Below are positions 29,610 to 32,315 of a stretch of 64,000 nt of DNA, in pieces. Origin of the DNA: Escherichia coli (GTDB lineage: Bacteria > Pseudomonadota > Gammaproteobacteria > Enterobacterales > Enterobacteriaceae); NCBI RefSeq assembly GCF_003991155.1, contig NZ_CP031293.1. The stretch is one strand, 5' to 3'. The notes beneath the pieces were generated by a model, which was given only the letters and a program-made list of their open reading frames with translations, searched no databases and was not told where the DNA came from. Numbering within the stretch: position 1 is the first letter of the stretch; the number at the start of each line of letters is the position of its first letter. A program made the position numbers and the translations under genes.

Positions 29610-29660
29610 TTATGACAACTTGACGGCTACATCATTCACTTTTTCTTCACAATCGGCACA
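29610..29660 (-). pseudogene. Orphaned araC 3'-terminal fragment (last ~16 codons plus stop), separated from araC by the insertion
   Basis: Minus strand reads ...GCC GAT TGT GAA GAA AAA GTG AAT GAT GTA GCC GTC AAG TTG TCA TAA (..ADCEEKVNDVAVKLS*), the AraC C-terminal tail as I recall it. Confidence 0.75.
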
Positions 29661-29678
29661 AAAGACACCCTCTGCCTA

Positions 29679-30101
29679 TCATTCGATAGTCTCAAAATAT
29701 TCCACCTGCAGAGAATCACGGTGCTCAATGATGCAATAACGCTGGAAATTATTTGCATAATCACTTTTATCATGAAAAAACCATATACAATCGTTTTGTA
29801 GACTCGGTCCCATTCCTTTCAAAAAATCTATTAGCTTTGCTTTCTGAAGAAAAATATTATCTATATTTCGCCATGTAACAATCACTCTTGTTTGCATATC
29901 ATCAACATTATAGTAATAGCTATACTCGGCTACGTTTGATATATTTGGCAAATTTCGCAAACTCTCTGGCGTATAAAGGAAAAATGGGGAAAGTTCATGC
30001 TGTGTATAGTGATGTTCCTTTGACATCAATGAGATATAAGCATAGAAAAATATAAAGAATAAAACTAAAAATGATAATAAAATATAAATATATTTTGACA
30101 T
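29679..30101 (-). CDS. Hypothetical small membrane-anchored protein, 140 aa; candidate immunity/partner protein
   Basis: N-terminal TM helix YIYILLSFLVLFFIFFYAYISL then a soluble domain; 6 bp downstream of the 283-aa ORF; strongly AT-rich. Confidence 0.6.
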   Translation of the reverse strand: MSKYIYILLSFLVLFFIFFYAYISLMSKEHHYTQHELSPFFLYTPESLRNLPNISNVAEYSYYYNVDDMQTRVIVTWRNIDNIFLQKAKLIDFLKGMGPSLQNDCIWFFHDKSDYANNFQRYCIIEHRDSLQVEYFETIE

Positions 30102-30107
30102 CTCTAC

Positions 30108-30959
30108 TCACGACCTGTGCGGATAATGAGGGTTTAAGAAAAGAAAAAGCGGTCTTTCAAAGGGAGATTCTGAAAACTTTATAGCTCCCGAACTTGATAA
30201 TGAACTATACAACTCATGATTTATTCTGTTTTTATCTTTATAATAATTAGTAATAGGTCTATTATTATATTGATTATATAACAATGTTGAAAAAGACTCA
30301 TCTAATGGCTTTATATAATTTAACCATTCTGGAAGCTTCTTTTTTATTAGTTGATTTTTTTTAAAAGGAGGATGGGTTGTAAATAAGAATGGCGTAAACT
30401 CAGTATTTTTAAAATTCCCTGGCGCTCCATATGTATCCCATATTTGTAAGGCTTTTGTGTAAGATAAAGGTTTTGCCAATAAAAGTGGATCGGGGCCTGT
30501 TCCAAATACACGATAAAAACCAATCAAGTCTGAGACTAAATCTTCTGCACTAAATCCGCTATCAGTATACCAGTTAAAAATAAATGAGTTTTGCCATGCT
30601 TCAAACCTCTTCGCAGTTCCATACATTAACGTTAAGGCAACTCTTGCTTTAAGAGTGGGTGAAAGACATGAACGAACCATAACCTTCGTATAAACACCGG
30701 TATGAAATGTAAGATCTACTCCTAATATTTTTTCCCGAATTCCCATTTCCTGATGATAATCAACAGGAAAATACCAATCATGAAATTCATCGTAATATGT
30801 TGAAAAATGTTCTTGCTCCAATTTTCTTTTTAATATTCTGGCATCTTGTCCCTGAGCATGCCCCAAATCGATCCAACCTAACTCTTCGGTATAAACTAAT
30901 CCATACTTTTTCGTTGTTGCAAATATTCCATCAGTAATATCGTTACGTTTGCTCATCAC
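30108..30959 (-). CDS. Hypothetical protein, 283 aa; candidate effector/toxin of a two-gene cassette, function unknown
   Basis: ORF with GAGGGGAG RBS upstream of a GTG-ATG start; single Cys; AT-rich codon usage unlike the flanking genes; absent from the K-12 araC-yabI interval. Confidence 0.6.
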   Translation of the reverse strand: MMSKRNDITDGIFATTKKYGLVYTEELGWIDLGHAQGQDARILKRKLEQEHFSTYYDEFHDWYFPVDYHQEMGIREKILGVDLTFHTGVYTKVMVRSCLSPTLKARVALTLMYGTAKRFEAWQNSFIFNWYTDSGFSAEDLVSDLIGFYRVFGTGPDPLLLAKPLSYTKALQIWDTYGAPGNFKNTEFTPFLFTTHPPFKKNQLIKKKLPEWLNYIKPLDESFSTLLYNQYNNRPITNYYKDKNRINHELYSSLSSSGAIKFSESPFERPLFLFLNPHYPHRS

Positions 30960-31432
30960 AATCTCCCCTCAAAAAAAACGTATAGCAAATAATATCAATA
31001 AGGAAAAATATTATTTTTCAATGTTTTTTTGTATACAATTCATTTTATGAATGAATTTACAAAGATAGCTGCGCCTGATACCGCTACACTTTTGCCAGAC
31101 CATGTTCTCCTCTGAGGGAGTAACTGGCGCTTTTCATAGAATGCCGTACTTTTTTCAACAACTGCCACATCGAACGGCATTTATGGTGGCGTGAAGTGCC
31201 TGCCATAACCGCTCAATGTGGTGTTCCTACGATGAACAAACCGCTTGATATATTCTCCTGATACAACCGGACAATATGTTCATGATGGGTATCCCGATAC
31301 ATAAGCCTTCGTTTTATTTTTACAAAAAGAAATCGTTGTCGATATTTTATCAAGAAAAAAATAATTCAGGTAAAACGATTCAACTAAAAATAACTAAAAT
31401 TAATCCCCCGTGAAATATATAAATAACGTCAG

Positions 31433-31469
31433 ATGAAGAAAGCAAGGGGGGCCCCCCCTTGCTTTCTTA
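31433..31469. repeat. Long perfect inverted repeat with G6/C7 core at the island-araC junction (terminator-like or recombination site)
   Basis: aagaaagcaagggggg | cccccccttgctttctt, arms of ~16 bp, abutting the new araC stop codon. Confidence 0.7.
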
Positions 31470-32315
31470 TTATTCACATCCAGCCCTAAACTCGCTCGGG
31501 CTGGCCCCGGTGCATTTTTTAAATACTCGCGAGAAATAGAGTTGATCGTCAAAACCAACATTGCGACCGACGGTGGCGATAGGCATCCGGGTGGTGCTCA
31601 AAAGCAGCTTCGCCTGACTAATGCGTTGGTCCTCGCGCCAGCTTAAGACGCTAATCCCTAACTGCTGGCGGAAAAGATGTGACAGACGCGACGGCGACAA
31701 GCAAACATGCTGTGCGACGCTGGCGATATCAAAATTGCTGTCTGCGAGATGATCGCTAATGTACTGACAAGCCTCGCGTACCCGATTATCCATCGGTGGG
31801 TGGAGCGACTCGTTAATCGCTTCCATGCGCCGCAGTAACAATTGCTCAAGCAGATTTATCGCCAGCAATTCCGAATAGCGCCCTTCCCCTTGCCCGGCGT
31901 TAATGATTTGCCCAAACAGGTCGCTGAAATGCGGCTGGTGCGCTTCATCCGGGCGAAAGAAACCCGTATTGGCAAATATTGACGGCCAGTTAAGCCATTC
32001 ATGCCAGTAGGCGCGCGGACGAAAGTAAACCCACTGGTGATACCATTCGCGAGCCTCCGGATGACGACCGTAGTGATGAATCTCTCCTGGCGGGAACAGC
32101 AAAATATCACCCGGTCGGCAGACAAATTCTCGTCCCTGATTTTTCACCACCCCCTGGCCGCGTATGGTGAGATTGAGAATATAACCCTTCATTCCCAGTG
32201 GTCGGTCGATAAAAAAATCGAGATAACCGTTGGCCTCAATCGGCGTTAAACCCGCCACCAGATGGGCGTTAAACGAGTATCCCGGCAGCAGGGGATCATT
32301 TTGCGCTTCAGCCAT
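31470..32315 (-). CDS. araC: AraC, arabinose operon regulator; C-terminally shortened allele (281 aa, ends ..SEFRAGCE*)
   Basis: Start at [15 protein letters not shown]; the last 11 residues of K-12 AraC are replaced by a stop at the insertion junction. Confidence 0.9.

Follow-up and report, generated by a model that had tools for sequence, protein, structure and literature searches.

A candidate orphan type VI effector–immunity pair with a DUF4056 (Lipocone) domain at a variable araC–yabI site of Escherichia coli

Introduction

Colicin M cuts lipid II in the periplasm, and its partner Cmi is a small protein with one N-terminal inner-membrane helix and a disulfide-containing periplasmic domain. 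The same topology is predicted for a 140-residue protein encoded between araC and yabI in the Escherichia coli DNA analysed here, a stretch of 64,000 nucleotides of contig NZ_CP031293.1 that is called the window below. The gene directly upstream encodes a protein of 283 residues, for which the comparison is with TelC of Streptococcus intermedius, a lipid II phosphatase toxin of type VII secretion that is paired with the immunity protein TipC (PMC5555719, PMC6193138). By sequence classification, TelC and the 283-residue protein belong to the same superfamily clade, and both pairs would combine a toxin expected outside the cytoplasm with a membrane-associated immunity protein that faces the compartment of the toxin. 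Are the two E. coli proteins a toxin and its antidote? And if so, how would the toxin reach other cells? The reading put forward here, to which we give a probability of roughly 65%, is that they form an orphan antibacterial effector–immunity pair of the T6SS (type VI secretion system) kind, its toxicity, substrate, delivery route and neutralisation being inferred from the sequences and from analogy with described systems.

How can a pair that stands alone be recognised as T6SS cargo? A precedent is offered by Ssp6–Sip6 of Serratia marcescens, an orphan, Hcp-dependent T6SS effector family (PMC6889166). The two families behave in the same way in genomes: a small effector is followed by a tiny downstream immunity gene, there are up to three copies per genome spread across Enterobacteriaceae, and some copies are orphan, some lie beside an orphan hcp and some inside T6SS clusters. 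The proteins themselves, however, are unrelated. Ssp6 is pore-forming, and the Ssp6-like assignment of the DUF4056 family was rejected because Sip6 has 67 residues and two membrane helices. Closer by family is a bicistron in variable region 2 (VR2) of SPI-6 (Salmonella pathogenicity island 6) of Salmonella Kentucky, proposed earlier as a candidate effector (PMC11669294). Like the E. coli locus it has two genes, one of them of the Pfam family DUF4056, and its position between clpV and vgrG recurs in Citrobacter portucalensis (see below). Unlike the E. coli pair, an orphan at araC, this paralogue sits within a T6SS cluster, and both are candidates predicted from sequence. The family itself was placed by a 2025 study of the Lipocone superfamily from Burroughs, Aravind and colleagues, which assigns DUF4056 to the CapCone group, in the same clade as TelC, and lists its signatures (bioRxiv 10.1101/2025.01.14.632903). 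The main text of that study names CapCone-1 and CapCone-2, but not CapCone-DUF4056, among the toxin tips and T6SS-linked versions.

The 283-residue protein

The original prediction, made by a model from the letters of the window and a list of its open reading frames (ORFs), described an ORF for 283 residues, an ORF for 140 residues six bases further on and a single N-terminal transmembrane helix in the smaller product. All of this is borne out, as are the coordinates that it gives. The two ORFs lie on the minus strand with six bases between them (RefSeq starts the larger one at the ATG at 30956, which gives 282 residues), and the helix is found both by hydropathy and in an AlphaFold2 (AF2) model.

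What kind of protein is the larger one? PADLOC (E<=1) and NCBIfam returned nothing, and PHROGs nothing significant. A database search found full-length relatives in Citrobacter, Salmonella, Trabulsiella, Rahnella, Yersinia, Serratia, Pectobacterium, Xenorhabdus and Pantoea, and several homologues bear the name DUF4056 in their sources. Of 48 relatives in an alignment (A1), 24 match the Pfam model of DUF4056 at E<=0.1 and three at E<=0.001, the best at 4.7e-7. The signatures published for CapCone-DUF4056 are recognisable in the E. coli protein as well. Gly28 stands six residues before His34 and Ile30-Asp31 four before it, in agreement with the Gly-6/His and xD elements; Gly28, Asp31 and His34 occur in at least 90% of the 48 sequences, within the motif GW[IV]DLGHA. 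Ser134, Ser137 and Asp140 are invariant and Phe136 precedes Ser137 (TDSGFSxEDLVSD), which corresponds to the SxxSxxD and aromatic-Ser, or Phe-Ser(-3), signatures. The protein encoded in the window is full length and has every invariant residue. It departs from the published family in three ways: it is divergent (Pfam E=0.6), it has Asp144 four residues after the H4 Asp, where Asn is usual according to the paper (the preceding Ser143 is a small residue), and it carries about 50 extra C-terminal residues, a trait of the long subfamily to which it belongs.

Like the described family members, the E. coli protein is soluble and of low hydrophobicity, with no hydrophobic segment (Kyte-Doolittle 19-residue maximum 0.96). 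Its AF2 model is confident (predicted local distance difference test, pLDDT, 87.8; predicted template-modelling score, pTM, 0.86) and has a hairpin at residues 21-31 running into a helix at 32-49, a long hairpin at 61-96 and helices at 101-123 and 140-152. The succession of these elements agrees with what is described in words for the family: clasp hairpin, helix 2, cap, helices 3 and 4. No solved structure resembling the model was found, fold membership resting on motifs and not on superposition, and the A1 profile had no match at E<=10 among PDB sequences. By its motifs, the 283-residue protein is a divergent CapCone-DUF4056 member of the Lipocone superfamily, in the clade to which TelC belongs.

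When 1.84 billion representatives were searched with a profile, it was seen that the family comprises 787 clusters at 50% identity, mostly from Enterobacterales, and that most members are standalone proteins of 220-290 residues. Truncated clusters are common (385 sequences belong to P0005, of 202 residues, and 963 to the full-length P0001). The domain is also found in larger proteins. In P0273 and P0262 it is C-terminal, after an RHS-associated core (TIGR03696, E ~1e-20), Foldseek revealed another Rhs fusion, from Cryomorpha, with the domain at the C-terminal tip, and in P0249 and P0272 it follows LysM. Plasmids seldom carry the predicted toxin gene (13 records), and in phages it is almost absent (1 record).

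The 140-residue partner

The smaller protein has one N-terminal hydrophobic helix, with a Kyte-Doolittle 19-residue maximum of 2.55 at residue 5 and a helix at residues 3-26 in its AF2 model. Across relatives, the motif Y-T-[EQ]-x-D…Y-T-P-[DE]-x-L-K-x-x-P-R-I-S and two cysteines are conserved. Pfam, NCBIfam and PADLOC (E<=1) gave no match and PHROGs nothing significant, and a word-based search returned near-identical E. coli copies only. Downstream of each relative of the large protein, a gene encodes a homologous protein of about 140 residues. From a genome scan the 80 best loci were kept, with one genome per species. Of 82 gene copies across Enterobacterales, 73 have a partner ORF immediately downstream, and 66 of the 73 partners have a strong N-terminal hydrophobic segment. 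The partner changes much faster than the enzyme: it is 32, 43, 26, 23 and 18% identical in loci where the enzyme is 69, 65, 65, 54 and 50% identical, respectively. At three loci (L034, L049 and L054) it is duplicated in tandem. In Citrobacter freundii (L005 8855-9300, and L006) the partner gene is frameshifted at a poly-A run, and the run lengths differ; this could be a pseudogene or a slippage-prone switch.

What could such a partner be? A BamE-like fold, as described for immunity proteins of Lipocone toxins, was expected and then rejected, the model being beta-alpha-alpha-beta-beta-alpha-beta-beta-beta and resembling PA1624, PknH and DcrB. Nor does it look like the antitoxin of a type II toxin–antitoxin system, having an N-terminal membrane helix and a two-cysteine domain predicted to lie outside the cytoplasm. 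The original prediction had considered effector/immunity and toxin/antitoxin-like pairs as well as defence cassettes. Its first option is the one favoured here; a cytoplasmic toxin–antitoxin pair is contradicted by a partner predicted to be membrane-anchored and periplasm-facing, and a defence cassette by the want of any PADLOC match.

Links to the T6SS and a proposed mechanism

Among the 80 loci, an hcp/TssD gene (TIGR03344, E 1e-47 to 1e-59) adjoins the pair in 15, against a rough chance estimate of about 1-2. These hcp-linked loci include the long subfamily nearest to the E. coli protein: Buttiauxella brennerae has the order araD-hcp-effector-immunity-polB, and Rahnella bruchi has hcp-toxin-partner. 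In Citrobacter portucalensis (L037), a paralogous pair is located between ClpV (TIGR03345) and VgrG (TIGR01646), that is, in a core T6SS cluster, and many genomes have two or three paralogous pairs. The effector gene can also decay beside its partner. In E. coli CFT073, a one-base deletion frameshifts the effector at codon 75 and the partner gene is intact; Nissle-type strains, like CFT073, have kept the immunity gene beside a broken toxin gene. Eight of 26 sampled cassette genomes are annotated otherwise than with the expected two coding sequences (seven with three, one with one). In the literature searched, experiments on the family were not found.

Conservation of the pair, its links to hcp, ClpV–VgrG and Rhs proteins, the fast partner, the paralogues and the broken effectors with a kept partner together favour the effector–immunity reading. 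An adjacent, co-oriented and fast-evolving gene for a protein with a predicted membrane anchor was found, and so was linkage of the family to the T6SS. In the field, orphan T6SS effectors such as Ssp6 are assigned on a combination of this kind, and it supports a delivered toxin with its antidote. Because CapCone-DUF4056 is unlisted among the toxin tips and T6SS-linked versions in the main text of the Lipocone study, the hcp, ClpV–VgrG and Rhs links extend the published description. Going by sequence comparison, the pair is a putative member of two known kinds, T6SS effector–immunity pairs and Lipocone toxins.

How would the pair work? By analogy with TelC and colicin M, the 283-residue enzyme, soluble and without a signal peptide, would be injected into the periplasm of neighbouring cells. 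There it would cut the phosphate linkage of a lipid head group, most likely that of an undecaprenyl-pyrophosphate-linked intermediate of the cell wall or of an exopolysaccharide. The 140-residue protein, with its one-helix anchor in the inner membrane and its alpha/beta domain reaching into the periplasm, would bind the incoming toxin and in this way protect sister cells.

Some loci show a further arrangement. In Xenorhabdus the toxin–partner pair is followed by a convergent hcp gene (L036 12185-14596; also L035, L042, L044, L060 and L075). In Xenorhabdus anantnagensis (L036), a P4-family primase comes next (TIGR01613, E 6.5e-28), a hint that the module may sit on a P4-like integrative element there.

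The araC–yabI site

The window is an E. coli chromosome segment with the K-12 gene order from cai to ilvI, small indels aside. Its variable site lies between yabI and araC, both on the minus strand, with thiPQ and araBA nearby (Table 1). The original prediction saw in this site an AT-rich, two-gene insert of about 1.8 kb, placed there by site-specific insertion and containing neither integrase nor transposase. The stretch is AT-rich, with a G+C content of 0.34 against 0.53-0.54 for araC and yabI, but it is a composite. The araC-proximal 210 bp (31262-31472) are a diverged copy of the start of a different islet of 5.4 kb, represented by locus L089 of E. coli Ecol_244, and the homology to L089 stops at …GTCCGGTT. 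Diverged versions of the terminator-like hairpin that follows araC are present in L089 and in CFT073. No recombinase ORF is found, as predicted, but there is a transposase pseudogene, a relic of an insertion sequence (IS) of the IS630 family that is about 82% identical over 107 nt to IS630 copies in 268 other genomes. The operon 5' region has no similarity to the Citrobacter spacer that alignment could detect, and a scan of 29500-31600 with Rfam gave sub-threshold chance matches only. The presumed single insert is therefore a mosaic; going by the alignments, it is made up of the stub of the other islet, the IS630 relic, the operon and a displaced araC end.

Table 1. Features between yabI and araC in the window, in order of position
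Feature	Coordinates	Strand	Remarks
yabI (DedA family)	28760..29524	minus	bounds the variable site on the left
displaced, non-functional E. coli-type araC 3' end (…F C A D C E E K V N D V A V K L S*)	29610..29663	minus	distal ~21-nt repeat copy and K-12-type tail
predicted cognate immunity protein, 140 aa; N-terminal membrane anchor and predicted periplasmic alpha/beta domain with two cysteines	29679..30101	minus	
predicted toxin/effector, 283 aa, soluble CapCone-DUF4056 (Lipocone) domain, intact in the window	30108..30959	minus	
operon 5' region	30960..31083	minus	without consensus-like promoter
IS630-family transposase relic, C-terminal fragment, frameshifted	~31084..31223	minus	RefSeq pseudogene in the identical genome NZ_CP029747.1, also in CFT073
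stub of alternative islet: araC-downstream spacer and first 13 codons (31302 to ~31264) of the DeoR-HTH/PfkB kinase gene	31262..31469	minus	alignment to L089 6168-6428
G+C-rich hairpin then T-run, terminator-like, directly after the araC stop	31440..31464	minus	stem 31444-31459, both strands
araC short allele, 281 aa, ends …SEFRAGCE*	31470..32315	minus	stop 31470-31472

What happened to the end of araC? As originally predicted, the gene stops after …SEFRAGCE, and a displaced K-12-type tail, EEKVNDVAVKLS*, lies at 29610-29651, adjoining yabI. TTCACA occurs at 29646-29651 and again at 31473-31478, and joining the two copies yields a K-12-like araC end. The sequence at 29420-29651 is identical to K-12, and K-12 homology extends to 29663. 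A flanking repeat does exist, then, but its six-base core alone is not beyond chance: the true repeat comprises some 21 nt from the 3' end of araC, the distal copy reading TTTTGTGCCGATTGTGAAGAA and K-12 TTTCGTGCCGGTTGTGAAGAA. The distal copy of CFT073 departs from K-12 araC at one base of the 21 nt. The two copies in E. coli are of different types, the proximal one short and donor-like, the distal one of the E. coli long type. In the araC of the window, TGT GAA TAA is preceded by the three sense codons AGG GCT GGA, for which K-12 has CGT GCC GGT, and the haplotype with the alternative islet (L089) has the same short araC ending (AGG GCT GGA TGT GAA TAA).

The original prediction called this end premature, which it is not. 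AraC ending in …RAGCE* (281 residues) is found in Citrobacter, Leclercia, Trabulsiella, Enterobacter and two Buttiauxella, and is the norm in six other genera or species; within E. coli, about 20% of complete genomes have it. In Citrobacter, the sequence from the stop onward is TAA AAA GTG AAT GAT GTA. K-12 has 11 extra residues because a change of the stop from TAA to GAA lets translation read into this old, conserved 3' untranslated region (29610-29651 and 31470-31490 of the window; L008 3203-3266). By these comparisons, the 281-residue AraC is ancestral, and the 11-residue tail of K-12 AraC (292 residues) is derived and specific to E. coli.

The site has three states in E. coli. Among 5,426 complete genomes, 4,332 have an empty K-12-type junction with the long araC, 582 have the 5.4-kb islet and 486 (about 9%) have the pair, which is always chromosomal and at least 95% identical (at least 99% in 481). 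The islet (L089 6168-11746), which ST131 and SE15 also carry, encodes a DeoR-helix-turn-helix (HTH)/PfkB kinase, an enzyme of the dihydrodipicolinate synthase (DHDPS) family and TctC/TctB/TctA; all sequence up to a point ten bases short of yabI gives way to it, and the distal araC remnant is absent. In another genome (L090), ISKpn26 has inserted and joined araC to foreign sequence, with a product of 312 residues, and has removed the kinase gene.

How old is the pair at this site, and how did it arrive? Between the genome of the window, which is phylogroup F-like, and CFT073, the cassette core (29679-31261) has 8 differences in 1,577 positions (~0.5%), against a divergence of 2.5-4.2% in the flanks (thiPQ 4.2, yabI 3.1, araC 3.3 and araB 2.8%). 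The cassette, relic included, has therefore moved between phylogroups well after their split. In Citrobacter freundii the order is araC (281 residues)-toxin-partner-remnant-yabI; it stays collinear with the window through the distal junction, at 72% identity, and a perfect repeat of 17 nt, CGCTGGATGTGAATAAA, stands on either side of the pair. Outside Escherichia and Citrobacter, the nearest relatives (Leclercia, Trabulsiella, Enterobacter and Buttiauxella) are located between araD and polB and have no repeats around them. In place of the predicted site-specific insertion, the mosaic, the three site states and the difference between core and flanks point to a recent spread of the pair by homologous recombination through the araC and yabI flanks, and not by self-insertion. 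A double crossover with a donor already bearing the duplication would do, one exchange falling within araC and a second at the distal repeat's left edge, with no site-specific enzyme needed. By this route the pair would have reached the E. coli lineages B2 and F, bringing the donor-type short araC end with it, and an earlier rearrangement would have left the IS630 relic and the stub of the alternative islet.

Two other origins were considered and rejected. The IS630 family duplicates TA, and a target duplication of the transposon type does not agree with a repeat of 17-21 nt in a stretch whose only IS trace is IS630. Derivation of the K-12 state by deletion of an ancestral cassette between the repeats is less parsimonious: the distal copy has Cys where AraC needs Arg, it is a near-exact E. 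coli-type araC end, and representative genomes of other Escherichia species are not among the 80 best loci. A literature search on the araC–yabI hotspot returned nothing relevant.

Alternative explanations

Several observations weigh against an effector–immunity pair of the T6SS kind. No T6SS gene lies within 10 kb in 65 of the 80 family loci, and there is none in the 64-kb window. Strain 2016C-3878, whose cassette is 100% identical, has no T6SS cluster at aspV or metV, the usual E. coli sites and the only two checked. With about 32 kDa, the 283-residue protein is large for cargo inside the Hcp tube, and its own match to Pfam PF13265 (DUF4056) is weak. A promoter scan (13 sites against 9 expected across the region) listed no minus-strand promoter-like site in the operon 5' region. 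Would a toxin with another route, or with none, explain the locus better? A true toxin–immunity pair that is not T6SS-delivered here could be kept mainly for immunity against toxin-bearing attackers, or its toxin could leave by lysis, in vesicles or through an unrecognised exporter. The vacant aspV and metV sites and the distance of most family loci from T6SS genes would fit, as would the frameshifted effector beside an intact partner in CFT073, the irregular annotation of eight of the 26 sampled genomes and the abundance of truncated clusters such as P0005. We regard this as unlikely, though worth keeping in mind: the effector of the window is full length with all invariant residues kept, a T6SS may be present elsewhere than at the two sites inspected in the identical-cassette genome, and CFT073, whose toxin copy is broken, is reported to have a T6SS1 cluster including VgrG c3393 (PMC6730261). 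Quite improbable, in our view, is a housekeeping or conditional envelope module with no role in antagonism, in which an enzyme acting on lipid head groups, cytoplasmic or peripheral to the membrane, would have a membrane-anchored partner to regulate or localise it. It would be in keeping with the many Lipocone families that are metabolic enzymes (bioRxiv 10.1101/2025.01.14.632903), with the frequent position of the pair among core genes (the ara operon; ndh-mfd in Yersinia) and with a modelled partner fold like that of the envelope proteins DcrB and PA1624. Such a module would hardly be so patchy within a species (9% of E. coli) or present as several paralogues per genome, however, nor would one expect a partner evolving much faster than the enzyme, an enzyme that decays as the partner persists, fusions of the domain to Rhs toxin cores, or relatives linked to hcp, ClpV and VgrG. 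The original prediction had named as grounds for its refutation that both proteins prove to be housekeeping or that the insert be universal, and neither is the case. Least probable of all is a cassette for anti-phage defence or abortive infection, whose membrane sensor would, on infection, free an enzyme that destroys a cell-wall precursor; defence islets typically have such a two-gene, AT-rich, patchy layout in a variable site, but no PADLOC model is matched by either protein even at E<=1, PHROGs has nothing significant, the gene is essentially absent from phages, and the neighbours in other genomes are T6SS parts and not defence genes.

A different question is whether the locus is an autonomous or trans-mobilised site-specific integrative element, with the repeats of the araC end as attachment sites. 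Direct repeats of the araC terminus flank the pair both in E. coli (about 21 nt, imperfect) and in Citrobacter (17 nt, perfect), site occupancy varies, and the element supplies a replacement 3' end for its target gene, as the attP sites of many integrases do. Even so, this is very improbable given that the stretch has no integrase or recombinase ORF, only an IS630 relic of 140 nt, that the araD-polB relatives lack flanking repeats, that the second islet at the same site lacks the distal repeat, and that the gene is rare on plasmids and phages. The distal copy is moreover of E. coli type and the proximal one of donor type, as a double crossover with a duplication-bearing donor would give. The preferred reading remains an orphan T6SS-type effector–immunity pair exchanged through its flanks. 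A wider claim can be made from it only tentatively, at odds a little short of even: the pair may represent the first recognised T6SS-delivered Lipocone effector family (TelC-like, cleaving lipid carriers) in Enterobacterales, with an undescribed membrane-anchored immunity family of Mog1/PsbP/DcrB-like fold, and it may be one of three exchangeable alleles of an E. coli hotspot that also switches AraC between 281 and 292 residues.

Other differences from K-12

The window differs from K-12 at several other places. Between apaH and folA there is an insertion of 1.44 kb (52082-53523) with two co-oriented ORFs, of 199 (52128-52727) and 149 residues (52763-53212), that have no NCBIfam match. A second insertion, of 1.0 kb (24264-25273), is located exactly after the sgrR stop and upstream of the thiB leader; it abuts a gene 3' end, as at araC, and contains one minus-strand ORF of 189 residues (24499-25068), again with no NCBIfam match. 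The setA gene (K-12 77593-78853) is absent, with about 40 bp instead (22278-22317) between sgrS/sgrT and leuD. At 42899-44296, in place of the yabP/yabQ region of K-12, is a gene for an IS110-family (RNA-guided) transposase of 326 residues (43196-44176; NF033542, E 1e-75). The thiQ-yabI spacer (28690-28748) has been replaced: it is 59 bp long, that of K-12 about 100 bp, and the two show no similarity that could be aligned. Outside the window, strain 2016C-3878 has a large island (L091 15043-46446) downstream of a tRNA-Leu gene, probably leuX, which includes an integrase, a TIR-domain protein, two type I restriction-modification methylase subunits with S and R subunits, an AAA ATPase and an N-6 methylase.

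Implications

The araC–yabI locus is a compact, countable case of how small islets move in E. coli. Its three alleles account for about 5,400 of the 5,426 complete genomes, and the flanks are several-fold older than the cassette. It also accounts, by loss of a stop codon, for the old oddity that AraC of K-12 is 11 residues longer than the AraC of relatives. The predicted immunity partner belongs to no database family. If the reading of the pair is true, well-studied strains, including E. coli of phylogroups F and B2, would carry an interbacterial toxin directed against the lipid carriers of the cell wall.

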